From: an uncultured Bacteroidales bacterium
Lineage (GTDB): Bacteria; Bacteroidota; Bacteroidia; Bacteroidales; JAADJA01
Direction: 5' to 3'
Length of the DNA stretch: 40,569 bases
Assembly (NCBI GenBank): GCA_964408535.1
Contig: CAYOZZ010000144.1
Span: 1 to 40,569 of the forward strand
The notes beneath the pieces are model-generated. The model saw only the letters and a list, made by a program, of their open reading frames with translations, searched no databases and was not told where the DNA came from. A program made the translations under genes and the position numbers. This document shows positions 16,524-40,569 of this stretch, piece after piece; the first letter of the stretch is position 1, and each line of letters begins with the position of its first letter.

Positions 16524-18053
16524 ATGCAGGAAACAATAATAATATTAGACTTCGGTTCACAATACACTCAACTGATAGCCAGACGGGTACGAGAGCTTAA
16601 TGTTTATTGTGAGATACATCCGTATAACGCAATTCCTGAAATAAACGGGAACATTAAAGGTGTCATTTTATCAGGAAGCCCATATTCCGTACGTGATAAT
16701 GATGCTCCTGTCCCGGATTTGTCATTAATTCGGAAAAAAATTCCAATTCTTGGAGTTTGCTATGGTGCTCAACACCTTGCCAACATTGACGGTGGTGAAG
16801 TTATGCCTTCAAAAATCAGGGAATACGGAAGGGCTAATCTCTCATTTATCGACAGTTCAAATGAATTAATGAAAGGAATGACCGGCGGTTGCCAGGTATG
16901 GATGTCGCACGGCGATACAATATTAAATATTCCTGACAATTATAAGATAATAACCAGCACAGCCGATGTTAAAGTCGGCGGCTTCAGGATTGAAGGTGAG
17001 GAAACCTGGGGAATTCAGTTCCACCCGGAAGTTTATCATACTACCGAAGGAATGACACTGTTAAGGAATTTTGTAGTTGACATTTGCGGATGCTCTCAAT
17101 CATGGACACCCGAATCATTTATTGATACGACTATTTCTTCTCTAAAGAAAAAACTCGGAAACGATAAAGTAGTCCTTGGACTATCAGGCGGTGTTGACTC
17201 GTCGGTTACTGCGGTTTTACTGCACAAGGCAATCGGGAAAAACCTGACATGTATATTTGTTGATAACGGGCTCCTGAGAAAAAACGAGTTTGAATCGGTA
17301 CTGGATTCATACAAACATATGGGACTCAACGTTATCGGCGTTGACTCGAAGAAAAGATTTTACAAGGCTCTCGAAGGAATTACCGATCCTGAACTTAAAA
17401 GAAAAGCCATCGGGAATACATTCATAGAAGTGTTTGACGATGAGGCACATAAGATTCAGGATGTAAACTGGCTTGCCCAGGGAACAATCTATCCTGACGT
17501 CATAGAATCAAAATCTGTTAAAGGGCCGTCGGCAACCATAAAATCGCATCACAATGTGGGAGGTCTGCCCGATTTTATGAAACTGAAGATTGTAGAACCT
17601 TTAAACACTTTGTTTAAGGATGAAGTACGCAGAATCGGTAAAGCACTGAAAATGGACGGAAGTCTGCTCGGACGCCACCCGTTTCCCGGGCCGGGCCTTG
17701 GAATCAGAATATTGAGCGATGTTACGGAAGAGAAAGTGAGAGTTCTTCAAGAGGCCGACCATATCTTTATCGAAGGGCTGAAGAATCACGGACTATATGA
17801 CAAAGTCTGGCAGGCAGGCGCAATTCTGCTCCCTGTTCAATCGGTCGGTGTTATGGGAGATGAACGCACTTATGAAAATGCAATCGTATTGCGTGCCGTG
17901 GAATCAACTGACGGGATGACAGCCGACTGGTCACATCTGCCTTATGAGTTTCTTGCTAAAATCTCAAATGAAATCATCAATAAGGTAAAAGGAGTTAACA
18001 GAGTGGTTTATGATATAAGTTCAAAACCTCCTGCTACAATTGAATGGGAATAA
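16524..18053 (+). CDS. guaA: GMP synthase (glutamine-hydrolysing)
   Basis: 509 aa. GATase start [18 protein letters not shown], catalytic GVCYG. ATP-PPase P-loop [10 protein letters not shown]. Conserved C-terminal dimerisation domain ending PPATIEWE. Confidence 0.95.
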
Positions 18054-18085
18054 TTACGTTAGTTATTATCAAACTGCTTAAGAAA

Positions 18086-20410
18086 ATGCAAAGAAGGAAA
18101 ATTTTATACTCGCTGATACTCATAATCGCAATACTGATAACCGTACCGGGGCTTTCGCAGAATGTATCCGTAAAAAAAACGGAAATAATTGAAAATATTG
18201 ACGGAACAGACTATTATTTGCATTTTGTAAAAAAGGGTCAGACATTATATAATATTGCCAAAGCCTACAATGTTACTGTCAATGATATCTTCAAAACAAA
18301 TCCGGCAGCCGAATCAGGTATCAAAACAGGTATGGTTTTGAAAATTCCGGTTAAAACAGTTGTGGAACAAAATGCAAATAACAAAACCTCTTCAAAAGAT
18401 AAAAATTTTTATTATCATATTGTTAAACCCAAGGAGACATTTTACGGACTTTCAAGGAGTTACAGCATCACGATTGAGGAGATAAAAAATGCAAATCCCG
18501 GAATTGGTGATGTTTTGAAAGAGGGAACTGTTCTGAAAATTCCGAAACATACATCCAAAACCCGGACAGTCGTAAATTCCTCAAAAACACATAGAGTTAC
18601 AGCAGGTGAAACCCTGTACGGCATTGCAAAACAATATAATGTAACAATAGGCGCCATAAAAAATGCAAACCCGGGATTAACCGACAAACTTGATATCGGG
18701 CAGGTATTGAAAATTCCAGAACAGGAAACCGAAGCGGAAACCGTATTGCAGGAAAAGGTTCGGAAAAAGAAACCGCAGTTTATAACACATACGGTTGTTT
18801 CGCACGAAACATTATATCAGATTGCAAGAAATTATGCCGTCGGTATTGATACCCTGATGCTTTACAACCCGGGGCTTTCAGAGTATATCTATACAGGACA
18901 AAAAATAAAGATTCCGGTTACTCATTCAACAAAAAATTACATTACACACACTGCACACAAGAATGACAAACTAAAAAAGATTGCCAAAAAGTATGATATT
19001 AGCTACACTTCTTTAACACAGATTAATCCGGGTATTTCAAATAAGGTAAAAAAAGGCCAGGTAATCAAGATACCTGTAACCCGTCAAGAAATTCCTGAAA
19101 AAACGGAACAGCAGGAGGAGATTCAGCCTGAACCTGTATTAGGCCCCTGTTCAGATATTGCCGGAAACAGAGAGAAAGTTTATAATGTAGCTCTTATGCT
19201 GCCGTTATATCTTGAACAAATTGACAGTATTGTCCCCGGTGAAACCATACCTTCCGGATTTAAACCTTTCAGATTTATTCAGTTTTATGAAGGATTTATG
19301 ATGGCAGTTGACTCAATGAAAAAAGCAGGAATGAATGTTAACATTTTCACTTATGATGTTGACAATACACCTGAAAAGATTGACAAGATACTTCAGACCT
19401 CCGAACTCAGCAGTATGGATGTTATCATCGGGCCGTTCTACGCGAGAAGTTTCCGTAAAGTGGCTGCTTTTGCAAAGACCTACGGTATAAAAATCATTAA
19501 CCCGTTATCATCTCGTGAGGAGATTATTCTGAACAACCCTTTCGTGTTTAAAATAAAACCCACCCTTGCGAGCCAGAGCGACCTGCTTGCGTCTTATATT
19601 GAAAAGGCATATCCCGAAAGTAATATCCTGATAGTCAGACACAACAAATATAAATTCCAGACCTTTGTCTCTTATGTCCGGAACACACTCAACCTTAACA
19701 GGGAAATGCATGTTATAATTAAAAATGACGTCATCGAAAGTAAACTGAAAAGCATCGAAGCCAACAATAAACTATACACCGAGAATATGCTTCTCGACAG
19801 GGAACAACTCCAAAGGACCCCTGAAGGAAGTACAACTTTCAGTAATATGGTTAAAGAAGTTATTTACTCCGAAGACAGTCTGACAGGTGTTAAACTGAAT
19901 CTTTCATTAGTCAGAAACAATGTTGTTATCATTCTGAGTGAAGATAAGTCATTTTCACAGGAACTCTTGTCACGTCTTAATAAACTTTCGGCAGATTATG
20001 ACATAAATGCAATCGGACTACCGGAATGGGGCAAGTTTGATGACCTTGAAACGGAGCCTCTTTTGAACCTGCATCTTCAGATTTTCAGTGAGAGTTATAT
20101 TGATTATGAAGAGAATAACACACTGGACTGGATAAAGAGTTACAGAGAAAAATTCAAAACCGAACCTTCCGTCAAAAAGTATGCTTTTGACGGATTCGAC
20201 ATAGGCTGGTACTTCCTGAATGCACTTTACAATTACGGCAGAGAATTTGAACAATGTATTGATAATATGGATATTACACTAATGCACACAAAATTCAAAT
20301 TCAAACATACTCCGGGAAACGGTTTCGAAAATACATACTGGAATATCTGTCGTTTTGAGGATTACACAATTGTAAAGATTCCGTTTGAGGAAACCGAACC
20401 ACAAGAGTAA
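18086..20410 (+). CDS. Five-LysM-repeat protein fused to a periplasmic-binding-protein (type 1, Leu/Ile/Val-binding-like) domain
   Basis: ORF 18044..20410. The Met at 18086 gives the signal peptide MQRRKILYSLILIIAILITVPGLSQ. Five LysM units each end in ...G(Q/T/M)(V/K)(L/I)KIP. The C-terminal ~400 aa look PBP1-like (YNVALMLPLYL...). Confidence 0.7.
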   Translation: MQRRKILYSLILIIAILITVPGLSQNVSVKKTEIIENIDGTDYYLHFVKKGQTLYNIAKAYNVTVNDIFKTNPAAESGIKTGMVLKIPVKTVVEQNANNKTSSKDKNFYYHIVKPKETFYGLSRSYSITIEEIKNANPGIGDVLKEGTVLKIPKHTSKTRTVVNSSKTHRVTAGETLYGIAKQYNVTIGAIKNANPGLTDKLDIGQVLKIPEQETEAETVLQEKVRKKKPQFITHTVVSHETLYQIARNYAVGIDTLMLYNPGLSEYIYTGQKIKIPVTHSTKNYITHTAHKNDKLKKIAKKYDISYTSLTQINPGISNKVKKGQVIKIPVTRQEIPEKTEQQEEIQPEPVLGPCSDIAGNREKVYNVALMLPLYLEQIDSIVPGETIPSGFKPFRFIQFYEGFMMAVDSMKKAGMNVNIFTYDVDNTPEKIDKILQTSELSSMDVIIGPFYARSFRKVAAFAKTYGIKIINPLSSREEIILNNPFVFKIKPTLASQSDLLASYIEKAYPESNILIVRHNKYKFQTFVSYVRNTLNLNREMHVIIKNDVIESKLKSIEANNKLYTENMLLDREQLQRTPEGSTTFSNMVKEVIYSEDSLTGVKLNLSLVRNNVVIILSEDKSFSQELLSRLNKLSADYDINAIGLPEWGKFDDLETEPLLNLHLQIFSESYIDYEENNTLDWIKSYREKFKTEPSVKKYAFDGFDIGWYFLNALYNYGREFEQCIDNMDITLMHTKFKFKHTPGNGFENTYWNICRFEDYTIVKIPFEETEPQE

Positions 20411-20557
20411 CCGGCAAATATATACTGACGAAGCCGGTATGTGAAAAGGTTAACCCGAATTATGCAATAGCAGGTCTTATCCTGAAATAGGTTGCCAGAG
20501 AAAATGAGAAAGCAACCGAAGACGGACTATCCTTTCATTAGTCTCTTCTCCCGGGCT

Positions 20558-20735
20558 GTTCCGGATTTAAGCGCCGGCACGTGGGTAAGCCTAATCCGGA
20601 ACCAAATATAATCCGGATTTGCAATCCGGCAAAACAACCCGCCCACAATCTCCGGATGACTGCTCTATGCTGACAAAAGGAAAAATTGAATTGTAATCCG
20701 ATTGATTGCACCGGAGTCATCAGGAGATTTAGCCC
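20558..20735 (-). ncRNA. Candidate structured RNA or MITE-like element, copy 1 (homologous to 39990..40160 on the plus strand)
   Basis: On the minus strand, AAUCUCCUGAUGACU (20729..20715) pairs with AGUCAUCCGGAGAUU (20661..20647). The same two boxes occur in copy 2. There are extra perfect hairpins: CCGGATT-tgc-AATCCGG at 20613..20629, and GTTCCGGATT (20558..20567) with AATCCGGAAC (20593..20602). Class unknown. Confidence 0.3.
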
Positions 20736-20848
20736 GAAAGAATCCCTGTAGGGACGACCTTTTTGTAACACTTGAACGCTGTTCGCAGGGCAAGTCCAAC
20801 GCTCCACCGCTCTTTCCTCTCCTATAGGGAATGGATAAAGGTATTGCT

Positions 20849-21574
20849 CTACGGCTCTTTCGTCATCACCAAAGTTATTACAAAGTCAATGTAATCGGTA
20901 AATAGAAAACTGTCGTCGGTCTGGGGATAGTTTTTTGAATAAATCGTTATTCCCCAGGCTGTCCGGTTTATTGAGAAACGTTCCGATTTTGCATACAAAG
21001 TATCATTCTTAATCGTTATTGTACTGATAAAGGAGACAGGTTTTACAATATCCTTAATTTTCAAATCGCCGTTTATCCGGTATCTGTTGTCACCTTTACC
21101 GGTAACACTACTAATTTTGAAAACGGATTCGGGATATTTCTTAACATCAAAAAACATATCCGATTTAAGAGTATTCTCAAGAGTGGCCTTCATTAAATAG
21201 TAATCAATATCAATATCAACAATACTGTCCATTAATATTTCAAAATTACCGCCGGTAATTTTGCCGTTATTAATTGTAATATTTCCGTTTTTCAACAAAA
21301 CATAGCCCTTATGTACAACGCAGTACCAATCCAATTTGCTTGCATTAAGGTCAACGGAATACTTTCCGTCCGGCAACTTTGCCGACGGAGCACCGGAATA
21401 ATTTGAACCGGAGTCGGTAACAGCTTGCTGAATCGGTACTTCTTCTTTAACCGGACTTGGATTTTGTTGATTATCAGGCTTTTTATCCTTCCCGGAATTG
21501 TTGCAGGAGGCAAAAAAAGCCGTTACAAAAACCGTAAACAATATCAATCCGGTATGAACAATACTTTTTTTCAT
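20849..21574 (-). CDS. YceI-like (polyisoprenoid-binding family) lipoprotein
   Basis: ORF 20849..21628. The Met at 21574 gives MKKSIVHTGLILFTVFVTAFFASC (lipobox). YceI-like motifs: DMFFDVKKYPESVFK, INGDLKIKDIVKPVSF, FSINRTAWGI. Confidence 0.65.
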   Translation of the reverse strand: MKKSIVHTGLILFTVFVTAFFASCNNSGKDKKPDNQQNPSPVKEEVPIQQAVTDSGSNYSGAPSAKLPDGKYSVDLNASKLDWYCVVHKGYVLLKNGNITINNGKITGGNFEILMDSIVDIDIDYYLMKATLENTLKSDMFFDVKKYPESVFKISSVTGKGDNRYRINGDLKIKDIVKPVSFISTITIKNDTLYAKSERFSINRTAWGITIYSKNYPQTDDSFLFTDYIDFVITLVMTKEP

Positions 21575-21575
21575 T

Positions 21576-22508
21576 TTAATCTTTATTTTCACCTTTAAAG
21601 GCAACACCTGTAATACGTCCGTCAACAATCATTTCTTTTATGGTTTCAGGAATATTTTTAGCACCTTCAAAGATAGTATTTTCAAATTCGGCACCAAAAA
21701 AGTTCACTCCTTTCAAATCGGCTCCCGTAAAATCGGCACCCTGAAGATGAGAACCCTGAAGATTGGCATACAACAACCTTGAGTTGATAAAAGTTGCGTT
21801 TTCAAGTCCTGCGCCGGTAAAGTCGGAATAGCTGAAATCAACAGAGTCCAGTTTTGAACCTTGCAGGACAGCCCTGAATAATTTTGTTTTAACAACAGTG
21901 CTTCCCGTAAAATCGGCGTGCAGAAATTCGGAATCTTTCATAAGCGATCCGGTAAAGTTGCAATTCTTTAAACTTGCCCTGTGGCCTTCCATCCCGAACA
22001 TATTAGCACCTCTGAAATCGGTGCTGTCGAGAACGGCTTCCGTTACGTGCACATGAAAAAGTCTGGCTTGTTTAAAATCGCAATTTGTCAGGTTTGAATT
22101 GTCGAATGTTGTCCAGCGAATATCGGCAACCCTGAAATCGGAACCTGCGAAATCACCGTTTGAGCACACTGCCGATCTGAAACTTGCCCCCCGGAAATCG
22201 CTGTTGTTTGCAACTGCCCCGTTCCAGTAAACATTGTCGAGATTTTCTCTTCTGAAATCATCTCCCGGCTGTGGAATCGGGATAATTCCCCTTTTGCGTT
22301 CCTTTCCGTCTATCAGCGGTGCAGGTTCATTTATAATAGCTTCAACCTGATCATCTTCGAGAAAATTTGCAACCTCAAACATATTTGTTGTGTCGGGAGG
22401 ATATGGGAAAAGATCGTTTCCCTGTTCAGTGACTTCAGCCCTGTTATTGCAGGCTGTAATTAACGCTGTAACGACAAAAGCAAATAATATATTTATGCGG
22501 ATGTTCAT
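21576..22508 (-). CDS. Pentapeptide-repeat lipoprotein
   Basis: 310 aa. Lipoprotein signal MNIRINILFAFVVTALITAC. About 40 consecutive A(D/N)LxX-type pentapeptides (for example ANLQGSHLQGADFTGADLKGVNFFGAEFENTIF). Confidence 0.8.
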   Translation of the reverse strand: MNIRINILFAFVVTALITACNNRAEVTEQGNDLFPYPPDTTNMFEVANFLEDDQVEAIINEPAPLIDGKERKRGIIPIPQPGDDFRRENLDNVYWNGAVANNSDFRGASFRSAVCSNGDFAGSDFRVADIRWTTFDNSNLTNCDFKQARLFHVHVTEAVLDSTDFRGANMFGMEGHRASLKNCNFTGSLMKDSEFLHADFTGSTVVKTKLFRAVLQGSKLDSVDFSYSDFTGAGLENATFINSRLLYANLQGSHLQGADFTGADLKGVNFFGAEFENTIFEGAKNIPETIKEMIVDGRITGVAFKGENKD

Positions 22509-22519
22509 CTTCAGCCTGA

Positions 22520-23395
22520 TTAAATTATATCGTTTCTGTTAAAATGCCTGTTTCCCAAAAAGCCGAGTAACCCACCGAGCAGGACCGGATATGCAATTGC
22601 AAAAACAATAAATACATTCCGTGTGACAATATCAAGAATATAATAAGATGCCGGCCCCATAACAGTCAGTTTAGGGTCGAAAAGTGCAAGCACTGCCGTT
22701 CTGAAAACCTGCAAAGGATTTATCATTCCAACGCCAATTACGATTTCAGGGTTCATCCTCATTTTCAGCATTATTCCCATAAGCAACAGGTCGAGAAAGG
22801 CAACAAGTATCAGCCAGATGATAAATGCCGAACTGACTGCCATATCCTGGGAGCGTGCTACGGACGAAATAAACATCCCTATACCGAGAAAGCAGAAGAC
22901 CATTGCTCCGAGAAGAAAACTGTAATAAGTAAACAAGTCCCACGGAACATCTATATTTGTAATGGTTCCCCAGATAGCAGCTCCGAGCAATGCAATGAAT
23001 ACCGGTACATAAATTACAATGAACCTGCCGATAAATTTCCCCCAGAAATAACCTGTAAATGAGACAGGTAGCGATAAAATGTATTCCATAACATTCGACT
23101 CCCTGTCACCAACGACCGATCTGACTGTTGAGATAAGCACATATATCGGCAGAATAACCATACTCACCTGCATAAATGTTACCATCAGCCTGCTCAAACC
23201 TACAAATCCGATTATCTGGGACTCGGTTATCCCCATTGCGAACATTACCGCTACAAAACCACCGAACAGAAGACTGTAAACCCAGAACCATCTTGACCGC
23301 AGGTTTTGTCTTACATCAAGTATTGTTATTTCTTTTATGCTTTTATCCATTTTATACTTTTTTGTGAAAGACAATTCTTGAATTGTCTTTACCAA
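22520..23395 (-). CDS. ABC-2 permease, NosY-like by context
   Basis: 291 aa, six TM helices. Alternative start at 23350 (MDKSIKEITIL). Lies in an operon with a NosL-like lipoprotein and an ABC ATPase. Confidence 0.65.
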   Translation of the reverse strand: MVKTIQELSFTKKYKMDKSIKEITILDVRQNLRSRWFWVYSLLFGGFVAVMFAMGITESQIIGFVGLSRLMVTFMQVSMVILPIYVLISTVRSVVGDRESNVMEYILSLPVSFTGYFWGKFIGRFIVIYVPVFIALLGAAIWGTITNIDVPWDLFTYYSFLLGAMVFCFLGIGMFISSVARSQDMAVSSAFIIWLILVAFLDLLLMGIMLKMRMNPEIVIGVGMINPLQVFRTAVLALFDPKLTVMGPASYYILDIVTRNVFIVFAIAYPVLLGGLLGFLGNRHFNRNDII

Positions 23396-23421
23396 ATCCG
23401 ATCTATCCTATTACCTTTTAA

Positions 23422-23487
23422 TGTGACAAGCGTCCACGCTGTCAACCCCTACCCTACTCCACATTGTGACAAGCGTCCAGGCTTGAT
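23422..23487 (-). repeat. Two REP-like hairpin copies between the nosL-like and nosY-like genes
   Basis: tgtgacaagcgtccacgctgtca (23422..23444) and tgtgacaagcgtccaggcttgat (23465..23487). Confidence 0.55.
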
Positions 23488-23497
23488 AACCTACTAT

Positions 23498-23980: not shown

Positions 23981-24008
23981 ATTGCGACAAGCGGCCACAC
24001 TTGTCAAT
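23981..24008 (-). repeat. Third REP-like hairpin copy, between the nosF-like and nosL-like genes
   Basis: attgcGACAAGcggccacaCTTGTCaat. Confidence 0.5.
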
Positions 24009-29603: not shown

Positions 29604-29764
29604 GCTATTCTGGATTTTTTATGATAACTTTTGCACCTGAATATCCCGGGCAATCCGTGTTAATTCGTGGAATCCGTGGGTATAAAAACTATGGATTGCT
29701 ATGTCCGGCATTGCTTGCGAAGCCTGAGCCACCGCCAAAGACAAAACCAACCTGCCATGATGAC
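29604..29764 (+). repeat. ~160 bp direct repeat, copy A
   Basis: About 92% identical to 31887..32046 (about 12 substitutions and 1 indel by eye). Ends 112 nt before the ATG at 29876. Confidence 0.85.
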
Positions 29765-29875
29765 AAGTCAGGCCGGAATCAAGGGAAGGTCATTTAATTA
29801 TAAAAATTAATTTCCATCTGATACCTATGTAAAAAAATCTTTATATTTTTACGCATAATTATTGATATTAATATT

Positions 29876-31879
29876 ATGTTTAGAATTAAATTAACCGTTT
29901 TATTTATTGCCGGTTTCGTAACGGCTTATGCTCAAAAGTTGGACACAACAGTTTTTAATTCCGTTTTCGAAAGAAAAGCCTTTAACTCTTATGCCGATTC
30001 ATCAAATCCTGATCCGTTAAAATTCTTTTGTGCTGTGAGTTATAAAAAAGGAGCATATGATAATATCCGAAAGTCCATTGATACAATTATGAACGATTTG
30101 TTTGATGAAGGAATTGCAAAAAAACCTTTAAAGAAAAAGGTGAAAATGATTTATAAGAGGGTTCACGAAGATATGTTAAAAAAATATGAGAATAATGTAA
30201 TTTTTAATGAAATATTATATTCGGGAGAGTATAACTGCGTTTCAGCCACAGCATTATATTCTGAAATTCTTGACAAAACGGGTATTAAATATAAAATTTT
30301 AGAGCAACCTGACCATGTCTATATTATAGTTGACCCTGATAATACCAGTATTCTTATGGAAAGTACAAATCCGCAGAAGGGAGTTATTATCTATGATGAA
30401 AGATTTAAAAAAGATTATGTTAAATATCTGTATAGTAATAAATTAATTGCAAAAGATGAATATATCAATAAAAGTACGGATGAACTTTTTAATGAATACA
30501 TGTACTCTGATGCAGAAATTGATAAGTACGAATTAGCAGGACTACATTATTATAACCGCGGTTCGTTTTTTATGGAAAAAGAGGAGTTTAATGATGCTGC
30601 AGCGTGTTATGAAAAAGCTTATTTCCTTTATCCCGGCAGTAAAACAATTGCTTTTTTATACTATATGGCACTCTCTAATGTATTAAACAATGAAGCGGCC
30701 GGGAATGATTTTCATGGTAAAACACTTGCCAAATATGTTAATATCAATATTCATGACGATGTCGTAATGCAATCTTCAGTTGATTTTTTTAAATCAGTGT
30801 TGAATACACTAATTGTTGAGCGTTCTGCCCCCGAAAAAGGTCAGAAATACTATTCGGAGTTTATATCATTTATCAGCGATTCCGTTAATACACAGGAATT
30901 TACTTTTAATTATTACTTTATAAACGGGTATTATTACCTTATTAAAGGAGAATACGAAAAGTCGCTGAATTATGCCGATACTGCATATCATATCCATCCT
31001 GACAATATGCATATTAAAGGAATAATACATGACGATTTCAGCAAAATCATCTTTTCAATGTCACAAACCAATTCAAATGTTTATATTGACACACTGTTTT
31101 ATTATTTCGACAAGTTCCCGTTTCTTTTTGATTATAATTATTTGGAGCAGTTTTTTTATTCAGTATGTTTTTTTAAAACAAAAGAGTATTTCGACCAGAA
31201 AAATGAAAAAGAAGGTACATTATTACTTCAAAAGCTTGATTTAATGCTAACTGGCAATCAGAATTTGGCTTCATCCTACAAGGGAATGAGCGGTATGCTA
31301 TACAGTATTGATCAATATTACAGGTATGACAAACCCAATGCCGATACACTAATATCCGTTTTCTCAAGATATCACAAGTACTTTCCTGATGATTATACCA
31401 TTAAAGCCAAATTGGAGGATATCAAGGAGAGAAAATCAAAAAATAAAAGTTTAAAATATGAAAATGTTTACGACCCGAGGGATGTGTTTCTGCAATTAAT
31501 GAATTTGACTCAGGACGAACAGGTGCAAAAGAAAACTATTCCGGAAGATTACAAAGGAAAGTTTAAGAAAATATTTACAGGTTGCTGGAATTCATCTAAA
31601 TACAAATTATCCGACAGCAATACGTTAAAAGACGGTAAACCGAGAAATATTACAGTAAGTAAGGGTTATCAACTAAAATATACGGTAGATGGCAAAACCA
31701 TCAAAGGTAAATGGTCAATTCGTCCTAAAGAAAAATTATTATATTTTACTTATGGGGATAATTCGGATTATTTGGTCTTTAGTATAGTAAAAATTGAAAA
31801 AGAACAAATAGAGCTTCGTCCCTACAAAAATGACAAGCTTTCAAACAAAATTATCATTTTTAAACCTTGTAAACAATAA
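29876..31879 (+). CDS. Secreted protein with a putative transglutaminase-like Cys-His core, a helical repeat region and a C-terminal beta domain
   Basis: 667 aa. Signal peptide ...VTAYAQ. GEYNCVSATALYSEILDKTGIKYKILEQPDHVYIIV...ESTNP resembles the Cys...His...Asp/Glu core of transglutaminase-like proteases. The function call is tentative. Confidence 0.5.
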   Translation: MFRIKLTVLFIAGFVTAYAQKLDTTVFNSVFERKAFNSYADSSNPDPLKFFCAVSYKKGAYDNIRKSIDTIMNDLFDEGIAKKPLKKKVKMIYKRVHEDMLKKYENNVIFNEILYSGEYNCVSATALYSEILDKTGIKYKILEQPDHVYIIVDPDNTSILMESTNPQKGVIIYDERFKKDYVKYLYSNKLIAKDEYINKSTDELFNEYMYSDAEIDKYELAGLHYYNRGSFFMEKEEFNDAAACYEKAYFLYPGSKTIAFLYYMALSNVLNNEAAGNDFHGKTLAKYVNINIHDDVVMQSSVDFFKSVLNTLIVERSAPEKGQKYYSEFISFISDSVNTQEFTFNYYFINGYYYLIKGEYEKSLNYADTAYHIHPDNMHIKGIIHDDFSKIIFSMSQTNSNVYIDTLFYYFDKFPFLFDYNYLEQFFYSVCFFKTKEYFDQKNEKEGTLLLQKLDLMLTGNQNLASSYKGMSGMLYSIDQYYRYDKPNADTLISVFSRYHKYFPDDYTIKAKLEDIKERKSKNKSLKYENVYDPRDVFLQLMNLTQDEQVQKKTIPEDYKGKFKKIFTGCWNSSKYKLSDSNTLKDGKPRNITVSKGYQLKYTVDGKTIKGKWSIRPKEKLLYFTYGDNSDYLVFSIVKIEKEQIELRPYKNDKLSNKIIIFKPCKQ

Positions 31880-31886
31880 GATTCGG

Positions 31887-32046
31887 GCTATTCTGTATTT
31901 TCATGATGACTTTTGCACCTGAATATCCCGGGCAATCCGCGTTAATTCGTGGAATCCGTAGGTATAAAAACTCAGGGTTGCTATGTCCGGCATTGCTTGC
32001 GAAGCCTGAGCCACCGCCAAAGACAAAACCGACCTGCCCGGATGAC
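31887..32046 (+). repeat. ~160 bp direct repeat, copy B
   Basis: See copy A. Ends 129 nt before the ATG at 32175. Confidence 0.85.
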
Positions 32047-32135
32047 CGGTAAAGCTGGGTATCCGTAACTGAATTTACATCTGATTTACAATTGTAAATA
32101 TTTGTTAAAAGTAATTTGCAGTATGGTTTTATATT

Positions 32136-39822: not shown

Positions 39823-39838
39823 TTTAAATTTTTAGACT

Positions 39839-39846
39839 CAAAATTA
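39839..39846 (-). promoter_or_regulatory. -7 promoter box (TAatTTTG) for the PASTA/T9SS/rluD unit
   Basis: Plus strand reads caaaatta, 17 nt upstream of the ATG at 39822. Confidence 0.4.
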
Positions 39847-39989
39847 ACTTTATAACTAATCAAACAAAGAAATATTGTTTAAAACGGCAAAGGTACATTA
39901 AATTTTCTCATTTTAACCTCACTTTTGTAAAGCCCGGATTATACGATGGTATAATTATGGCTTGACAGCATTAACAAGAAGCAGAAGCG

Positions 39990-40265
39990 GTGTCCAATCT
40001 CCTGATGACTACAGGTGTCACAGTCCGTAATACTATTCAGCCCCAATTTCGTCTGCAAAATTGCCATCCGGAGATTTCGGGCAGGTTTTTGGCTGCGTCT
40101 AATTTTAAGAAGCCGGTTTGGTTTTTAGGTTAGGTTTATGTTGTGGGCATACCTGACCTTTGATCTCCATACAGGCTTTTCCGACTCAACCCTCCCAATT
40201 ACTATCGGGGCTCTCTAACAGTAGAGAGGGGAAACCCATCTATGTTCCAAGCTTCCACGCTTGGA
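39990..40265 (+). ncRNA. Candidate structured RNA or MITE-like element, copy 2
   Basis: AATCTCCTGATGACT (39996..40010) pairs with GCCATCCGGAGATT (40063..40076). The ~110 nt from 39996 are about 65-70% identical to the minus strand of 20625..20735. Downstream hairpins: CTCTCTA-acag-TAGAGAG and CCAAGC-ttccac-GCTTGG. Confidence 0.3.
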
Positions 40266-40282
40266 AATATATAAAACACCCT

Positions 40283-40420
40283 CCTTCGTGAACCTTTGAG
40301 CCTTAGTGTCTTAGTGGCATTATTAGTCCCGTAACGGATATTTTGTTTTTTTGCCACAAAGGCACTAAGAAACACAAAACCCCATTATTTAAGTTAGTGT
40401 AAATTCGTGTAATTCGTGGC
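40283..40420. repeat. Island of degenerate 9-10 nt tandem units arranged as an inverted repeat
   Basis: ccttcgtga/acctttgag/ccttagtgt/cttagtggc faces the inverted gccacaaag/gcactaaga/aacacaaaac. This is followed by agttagtgt/aaattcgtgt/aattcgtggc. Confidence 0.6.
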
Positions 40421-40569
40421 CCTGGCTCTATCGCTGTGATAAGCACCGGCCACCTTAACCCTAACCATATTCCCATACCGGCTTCCTTGCCATAACCCTC
40501 CACCTAAATTCGTGGGCCCCGGCTCTTTCGGATTCCAGCGCAAGCACTATCGTCAGTCTTTTGAAAGAA

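Follow-up and report, generated by a model that had tools for sequence, protein, structure and literature searches.

A probable REP/REPIN-type hairpin element in the intergenic DNA of an uncultured Bacteroidales lineage

Intergenic DNA of bacteria can hold modular mosaics of short repeats, such as the BIMEs of E. coli and the BOX elements of pneumococci. In REPINs, which derive their name from repetitive extragenic palindromic (REP) sequences, two conserved inverted sequences enclose a spacer that is conserved only in its ability to pair; the units, of ~89 bp, form tandem arrays and flank the gene for a REP-associated tyrosine transposase, RAYT (PMC3116915, PMC3337134). Among the Bacteroidetes TnpAREP genes, those of subclass 2.6 reportedly have on their flanks “atypical secondary structures” of which the genome holds further copies (PMC6006769), and TIRYTs are RAYT-like genes with long terminal inverted repeats that lack GTAG and form dispersed families (Di Nocera et al., 2013, PMC3733652). 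Here, we describe a hairpin element, called the core below, that occurs twice in a 40,569-nt stretch of DNA (the window; contig CAYOZZ010000144.1 of an uncultured Bacteroidales bacterium) and belongs to a repeat family of the same lineage. An original prediction, made from the window alone, had taken it for an unclassified structured RNA. We put the probability that it is instead a lineage-specific, non-autonomous element of the REP/REPIN type at about three in four. The kind of element is already known: it is selfish DNA of an ordinary type.

Copy 1 of the core (83 nt; 20647..20729, minus strand; E 7.5e-27 with the nhmmer profile of the family) lies in a 438-nt, hairpin-dense spacer (20411-20848) between two convergent genes. 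Its arms are inverted around an interior of 53 nt, variable except for a conserved CAATTCAAT box: the 5′ arm, AATCTCCTGATGACT (20729-20715), pairs with the 3′ arm, AGTCATCCGGAGATT (20661-20647), save for one pyrimidine-pyrimidine mismatch at position 8. The long-range helix of the original prediction is thus present, but as 14 bp plus a U.C mismatch rather than as 15 perfect pairs, and it closes 53 instead of ~55 nt. The second copy that the prediction had claimed is real: it spans 81 nt (39996..40076, plus strand; arms at 39996-40010 and 40062-40076; nhmmer E 4.7e-17), is inverted relative to copy 1 and has a degenerate 3′ arm with two substitutions (TGCCATCCGGAGATT). The window has 4-5 occurrences of each arm motif, as against 0.13-0.25 expected, and in none of 100 shuffles was the observed count reached. 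Copy 1 folds at -31.9 kcal/mol (z -4.2). Within an arm, only the hexamer TCCGGA is self-palindromic; the pairing is between the arms, not within them.

The family was collected by a two-arm pattern scan of metagenome contigs, which returned many chance matches and one coherent group, with an arm spacing of 79-80 nt and with sequence between and beyond the arms that could be aligned to the window; a profile was built from that group. At nhmmer E <= 1e-17 it finds 22 copies in ~15 unrelated loci of one uncultured Bacteroidales lineage (besides the window, L013, L015, L022, L034, L040, L051, L068, L091, L105, L107, L122, L157, L173 and L178). All sites are intergenic and their flanks are mutually unrelated. 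The genes that adjoin these dispersed copies are ordinary (secreted proteins and type IX secretion cargo, TPR, Fic, an outer-membrane protein, a ParE toxin-antitoxin pair), and a scan of the neighboring genes found no transposase or recombinase among them. In L034, 3.6 units of 229 nt, each with one core, form a tandem array. That the element is a discrete, repeated, hairpin-forming unit is borne out by a multi-copy family with inverted arms. The strict two-arm pattern has no hit in 185,579 representative genomes; looser patterns find the family in one of them, a highly fragmented Bacteroidales metagenome-assembled genome (MAG), GMC4.concoct.313, and a variant in MAG 356-308. Viral contigs and plasmids gave no match to the family and thus no sign of a phage or plasmid origin.

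What is conserved in the family? Across an alignment of 21 copies, used for conservation and consensus folding alike, the two arms hardly vary, and the same is true of the short 3′ flank TTGYGSGC and of a central RRTTCRAT box; the remaining interior (~53 nt) divides into at least three mutually unalignable subfamilies. The RNAalifold consensus holds the arm helix and nothing else, with a covariation term of +0.13, and position 8 is always a pyrimidine-pyrimidine mismatch in window-type copies (U.C, U.U or C.C). A hairpin is predicted in every copy folded, with z from -1.0 to -6.1, and the interior folds disagree from copy to copy.

This pattern bears directly on the proposal that the hairpin is selected as RNA, be it a small RNA, a stabilizer in a 3′ untranslated region or a protein-binding RNA, and that the family is one of structured non-coding RNAs or cis-acting RNA motifs. 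The original prediction had seen selection in the inner stem, where UCCG/CGGA in one copy stands for UAC-GG/CCGUA in the other. Both pairings are literally present in the respective copies, but the minimum-energy fold of copy 1 does not use them, and the 21 copies do not preserve them; the two window copies belong to different repeat subfamilies, and it is this, not selection on an RNA fold, that makes them seem to compensate. In the arm helix, none of the 14 predicted pairs shows a compensatory change, each being either invariant or broken, and the arm substitutions in L178_A, L034_386 and L034_157 are uncompensated. The claim of a selected RNA structure is not supported, the interior having no common fold either. 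The other claim, that no known RNA family matches, holds: nowhere in the window does an Rfam model reach its gathering score, and relaxed thresholds yield chance-level hits only in 20300-20950 (E <= 10) and none in 39830-40569 (E <= 1). An RNA could still account for the stability of the copy 1 hairpin, for the inner end of the helix (columns 19/74: UA in 10 copies, UG in 8), where G.U arises on the element strand only, and for the place of copy 1, L105, L178_A and L013/L022 just 3′ of a same-strand gene; in addition, REPs of other bacteria stabilize mRNAs and terminate transcription (PMC6006769). Yet copies lie in either orientation to their neighboring genes, some of them between divergent genes (window copy 2, L107, L178_B), and neither tandem arrays nor the link to a transposase described below would be expected of an RNA gene. 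We consider an RNA improbable. Narrower candidates were also rejected: a hammerhead ribozyme, suggested by CUGAUGA in the 5′ arm, on inspection lacks GAAA after the next stem and has no Rfam hit; a k-turn or C/D box (UGAUGA) does not fit strands that form a plain helix; and a peptide encoded by the conserved boxes is ruled out by one-base indels between copies.

If the arms are conserved as DNA, which protein reads them? Elements related to the core flank genes for proteins of ~205 aa in L118 (245-853) and in L024 (3836-4462), the latter identical to L140 of MAG 356-308. Both proteins match NCBIfam NF047646, “REP-associated tyrosine transposase” (E 9e-15 for L118, 5e-15 for L024), and their sole match in the PDB is 4ER8, E. 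coli TnpArep (E 0.005), in an alignment that spans the HUH motif (NHFHFM) and the catalytic-tyrosine motif (YIHRNPVKARLV..W.FSSF; YI..NPV). They have 4,034 database homologs at E <= 1e-10, several labeled “REP element-mobilizing transposase RayT” by their sources. On both sides of the L118 and L024 genes stand several 82-84-nt elements in alternating orientation, with arms ATTCTCCNGATGACT / AGTCATCNGGAGAAT.

As an independent test, the contigs of the four closest RAYT homologs were fetched by protein identity alone. All four genes have hairpin elements on their flanks, of 82-86 nt from arm end to arm end and mostly of 83 (of 83-86 nt in L193, L194 and L195), compared with 83 and 81 in the window. 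RAYT loci with flanking elements then number five (L118, L024/L191, L193, L194 and L195), among which L193, L194 and L195 were reached through protein homology alone; all five have elements of 80-86 nt on both sides, with arms that are the same as those of the window or co-vary with them. L193, whose protein is 86% identical, has the exact window 5′ arm, AATCTCCTGATGACT, beside its RAYT gene, together with hybrid AAT/AAT and ATT/ATT forms; the arms are AATCTCCCGGTGACT / AGTCACCGGGAGATT in L194 and TCTCCCGATGAC / GTCATCGGGAGA in L195. A profile made from window-type copies only matches the RAYT flanks at E 7e-10 to 6e-4, with no hit in 20 shuffles, and has no hit beside three more distant RAYTs (L196-L198). 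Changes on both sides of the arm helix are found only between RAYT lineages, as expected of co-evolution between a transposase and its substrate. In published REP-RAYT pairs, it is likewise characteristic that the arms follow the lineage of the transposase (PMC3116915, PMC3337134, PMC6006769).

Two observations may connect such a RAYT with the genome of the window itself: L118 comes from a metagenome that also contains the strain of the window, and its RAYT gene differs from that of MAG 356-308 (79% nt identity) about as the window does (75-81%). Provenance and matching divergence are at most suggestive of a RAYT in that genome; we infer that it has one and that the enzyme mobilizes the window copies. 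The distant homologs P0005, P0007 and P0009 were rejected as the RAYT of the exact window subtype, coming from unrelated samples and having flanks that do not match. Upstream of the L194 RAYT, a 27-aa duplicate of its N-terminus (304-384, opposite strand; 70% identity) and a run of N near 450-460 of the scaffold suggest a rearranged or misassembled REPtron.

How does this system compare with those described? As in REPINs with their RAYTs (Bertels and Rainey, 2011, PMC3116915, PMC3337134), a conserved inverted pair encloses a less conserved spacer in a unit of ~80-90 nt; one strand can fold as a long hairpin with imperfect pairing; many copies exist, all extragenic and some in tandem arrays; and relatives flank a single RAYT gene, with arms that co-vary with its lineage. 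The host differs, being an uncultured Bacteroidales and not a proteobacterium. With the Bacteroidetes TnpAREP (2018, PMC6006769), the similarities are a Bacteroidota host, a protein of ~180-200 aa, the NH.H and YIH.NP motifs and non-canonical flanking hairpins that recur in the genome. Neither published subclass fits exactly: the RAYTs described here read NHFH and YIHRNP, unlike subclass 2.6 (NH[LIV]H, YIH[QN]NP) and subclass 2.4 (NH[IFV]H, YIxNNP), and in this comparison by motif only, the WQ motif is not evident. TIRYTs (PMC3733652) share RAYT-type genes flanked by repeats without the GTAG tag and moderately abundant dispersed families, but here the flanks consist of discrete ~83-nt hairpin elements in alternating orientation rather than of one long inverted-repeat pair.

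Several observations weigh against the REP/REPIN assignment. (i) On the side of the protein, the NF047646 score, 55 bits, is below the 80-bit equivalog cutoff, and Pfam Y1_Tnp matches L118 weakly and L024 not at all. (ii) On the side of the link, L118 and L024 were first found via the arm pattern, so their connection to the window is partly ascertained; the 40.6-kb window contains no RAYT gene; among the loci examined, neither the cognate RAYT of the window genome nor any RAYT with exactly the arms of the window on both sides was found; and flanking copies, which are close variants of the window subtype and not identical to it, mostly read ATT...AAT where dispersed copies have AAT...ATT. (iii) On the side of the element, the GT[AG]G foot of canonical REPs is absent from the core flanks in the aligned copies, and the arms, unlike REP halves, are not small palindromes. 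(iv) The count of 22 copies spans fragments of a lineage and is not a per-genome number, and the family is present in only one representative genome. (v) Transposition was not seen, and recombination alone could account for the rearrangements described below. The departures in foot, arms and protein motifs weaken the label “canonical REP”; they do not weaken the proposition that the element works like a REPIN.

Conserved inverted ends would also suit a miniature inverted-repeat transposable element (MITE), in which the 15-nt arms are terminal inverted repeats read as double-stranded DNA by the DDE transposase of an insertion sequence elsewhere. The elements are small, non-coding and multi-copy, and an IS4-like transposase fragment adjoins the copy-2 locus in strain L184. 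However, no direct repeat that could be a target-site duplication flanks any copy inspected, as expected for HUH transposition, and conserved sequence runs on outside the arms (CCAA... before, ...TTGCGCGCCGG after; in the alignment, ..CCAA/GCAA precedes the 5′ arm and TTGCGCGCC follows the 3′ arm). Moreover, no insertion sequence with the core termini was seen in the loci examined, in a search that reached termini <=600 nt apart; the arms do not delimit the L184 fragment; and RAYT is the only gene repeatedly flanked by such elements. A classical MITE is thus unlikely. The original prediction had named a plain MITE as the finding that would undo it, and what it described is essentially what we find, a small mobile inverted-repeat element that is multi-copy, has conserved inverted arms and has relatives flanking a RAYT; the difference is that it lacks a target-site duplication and is linked to an HUH transposase, which acts on single-stranded DNA, rather than to a DDE enzyme. 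In L184, the fragment just mentioned (1290-1510, in opposite orientation to the window; IS4/IS1634-like as read from its translation) replaces the copy-2 mosaic; it begins at window position 39947, directly upstream of the gene for a PASTA protein.

Under the REP/REPIN reading, the enzyme would be a RAYT, of the HUH/Y1 type that acts on single-stranded DNA; a single gene elsewhere in the genome would encode it, and it most likely recognizes the hairpin in single-stranded DNA; the active form would be single-stranded by analogy with TnpArep and IS200/IS605 (PMC6006769). By cutting and rejoining the hairpin, RAYT would let copies spread and persist in intergenic DNA. Only copies with intact arms would stay substrates, which would explain why the arms are invariant beside a drifting interior; everything outside the arms would drift or be shuffled, and recombination among copies would rearrange the genome between strains. 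Any effect on transcription, through 3′-end hairpins between convergent genes, would be secondary.

Comparison of strains shows synteny breaking at the elements, which are hot spots of strain-level rearrangement. L188 has the arrangement of the window at 99.9% identity. In L178, identity is 99.3% between 9197 and the element, falls off across the modules and is lost at the 5′ arm; past that point, L178 has a ParE toxin-antitoxin pair, a second core copy in the same orientation and an NAD kinase gene instead of YceI. The pair, a ParE-family toxin of 92 aa with an 83-aa upstream partner, lies at 11441-12433 of L178, between the two direct core copies. At the copy-2 locus, L183, L184 and L181 depart from the window at 39922, 39947 and 40373, respectively, L181 differing from 40373 onward, and L183 has SnoaL-like and NmrA-like genes, absent from the window, between a truncated core and the PASTA gene. 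That truncated core (167-228) starts at the central AATYCGAT box, has no 5′ arm and is followed directly by the CCCATACAGGCTTC box. Contigs L182 and L186 end at the repeats. The YceI gene of L001, the closest representative MAG, is followed by a few tens of bases and by no element; this is not a clean empty site, as the gene adjoining YceI differs too.

Do these breakpoints mark cassettes? An integron attC-like site, a folded hairpin that serves site-specific recombination at the boundaries of mobile gene cassettes, would be consistent with the two direct copies that bracket the ParE pair in L178, absent from the arrangement of the window, and its architecture is loosely similar, with two 7-bp boxes around an unpaired position and then a variable terminal structure. 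But the arms do not fit the consensus RYYYAAC / GTTRRRY, the neighboring genes scanned include no integrase or other recombinase near any copy, and no clean insertion explains L178, where the flank on the far side differs as well (NAD kinase for YceI); the gradual loss of identity within the repeat is in keeping with homologous recombination between copies. An attC site is accordingly very unlikely, even if some enzymatic exchange at breakpoints of the L178 and L183 type may have taken part. A bolder version of the REP/REPIN reading sees in the elements not just passive selfish DNA but substrates of a Bacteroidota-specific RAYT subclass whose hairpin targets are unusually long (15-bp stem, ~50-nt interior, no GTAG guide), and has RAYT, acting at paired copies, move small gene cassettes between strains. 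The ParE pair between direct copies and the breakpoints inside the element in >99% identical strains gave rise to it, and we regard it as a long shot; if true, it would amount to a REPIN-bounded, integron-like system driven by single-strand DNA transposition.

The window as a whole is a chromosomal segment of a Bacteroidota member, with housekeeping genes and several proteins that carry a type IX secretion sorting domain. The genes that converge on the spacer of copy 1 are a LysM-repeat gene (18044-20410, plus strand) and a YceI-like gene (20849-21628, minus strand). Every helix that the original prediction listed in this spacer was found on the minus strand where it had been placed: besides the arm helix, GTGGG/CCCAC (20646-20642 with 20585-20581), the 7-bp hairpin CCGGATTgcaAATCCGG (20629-20613), the 10-bp helix GTTCCGGATT/AATCCGGAAC (20602-20593 with 20567-20558) and GAAGAGACTA/TAGTCCGTCTTC (20548-20539 with 20529-20518, with a 2-nt bulge). 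Whichever strand is taken, the whole spacer folds better than its shuffles (z -3.1 for minus, -2.5 for plus), and good folding on both strands is the pattern that DNA palindromes give.

These helices belong largely to further repeats. A second module, D (20551..20637, minus strand), comprises the hairpins CCGGATTgcaAATCCGG and GTTCCGGATT...AATCCGGAAC followed by AGCCCGG; by BLAST it is 76-88% identical to sequences in L015, L107, L173 and L034, and it also recurs in L068. In the L034 variant, GTTCGGGATT..AATCCCGAAC, both arms are altered symmetrically. A third, H (20497..20548, minus strand), which carries the hairpin GAAGAGACTA / TAGTCCGTCTTC, is 88% identical to L181 5320-5369 and also present in L183. 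At 20430..20443 (minus strand), CACATACCGGCTTC represents the CCCATACCGGCTTC box, with which many composite units end; boxes of this type have three matches, as against 0.19 expected, with one at 40472-40485, and occur in L015, L051, L091 and L183. The 438-nt spacer thus reads as the core plus at least three other short repeat modules in a BIME-like mosaic. A mosaic of further modules likewise lies 3′ of copy 2 (40077..40569, plus strand) and runs off the end of the window; its pieces match L091, L051, L015, L181 and L183 in differing orders, and a similar mosaic fills 1.1 kb of intergenic DNA in L181. Short modules in varying order and number within spacers (20411-20848, 39923-40569) recall BIMEs and BOX elements, to which there is no sequence similarity; the module set here is lineage-specific.

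Could the spacer simply be a bidirectional intrinsic terminator region that has grown long? It does separate convergent genes, and the hairpin at 20629-20613, followed by ATTATATTTG, fits a terminator pattern. Against this, a single terminator-like site compares with 0.9 expected by chance, no T run follows the core hairpin, the same modules stand between divergent genes and in tandem arrays, and L001 makes do with its few tens of bases after the YceI gene. The terminator explanation is therefore highly improbable.

Other repeats of the window resemble parts of the mosaics. A 161-nt direct repeat of 91% identity (29616-29776 and 31898-32058) brackets a 667-aa TPR gene (29876-31879); within it, a CGTGTTAATTCGTGGAATCCGTGGG stretch resembles, by relationship, the “ACGAATT” modules that adjoin the core in other loci. 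The short repeat TGTGACAAGCGTCCACGCT occurs at 23422-23440, 23465-23483, 23983-24001 and 40243-40261, and as ..ACCGAGCGTGGACGC.. in L034 and L040; the spacer 23366-23495, with two of its copies, measures ~130 nt in the window and ~32 nt in L001. Tandem runs of a 9-10-nt unit (AAATTCGTG / CACGAATTA) are found at 40395-40425 and 40505-40520, in L183 (60-130) and in L181 (5185-5215 and 5410-5430). In several loci such runs frame the composite units in inverted orientation, ahead of the core and behind the CCCATACCGGCTTC box, and they look like iterated protein-binding sites. A module GGCTTTTCCGACTCAACCCTCC...GGGGCTCTCTAACAGTAGAGAGGGGAAAC with an internal hairpin is shared, at 82% identity, between the window (40160-40240) and L091 (~690-751).

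What follows for this lineage, whose metagenomes are presumably from hydrothermal vents? A candidate new RNA is removed: its long, hairpin-dense spacers are repeat mosaics, which should be masked before RNA motifs are sought. The repeats coincide with contig ends and strain breakpoints and so explain why the lineage assembles poorly. For REPIN-RAYT biology, the family would add an example from uncultured Bacteroidota in which the hairpins are non-canonical, with a large interior and without a GTAG foot, in agreement with published hints that Bacteroidetes RAYTs have atypical substrates.

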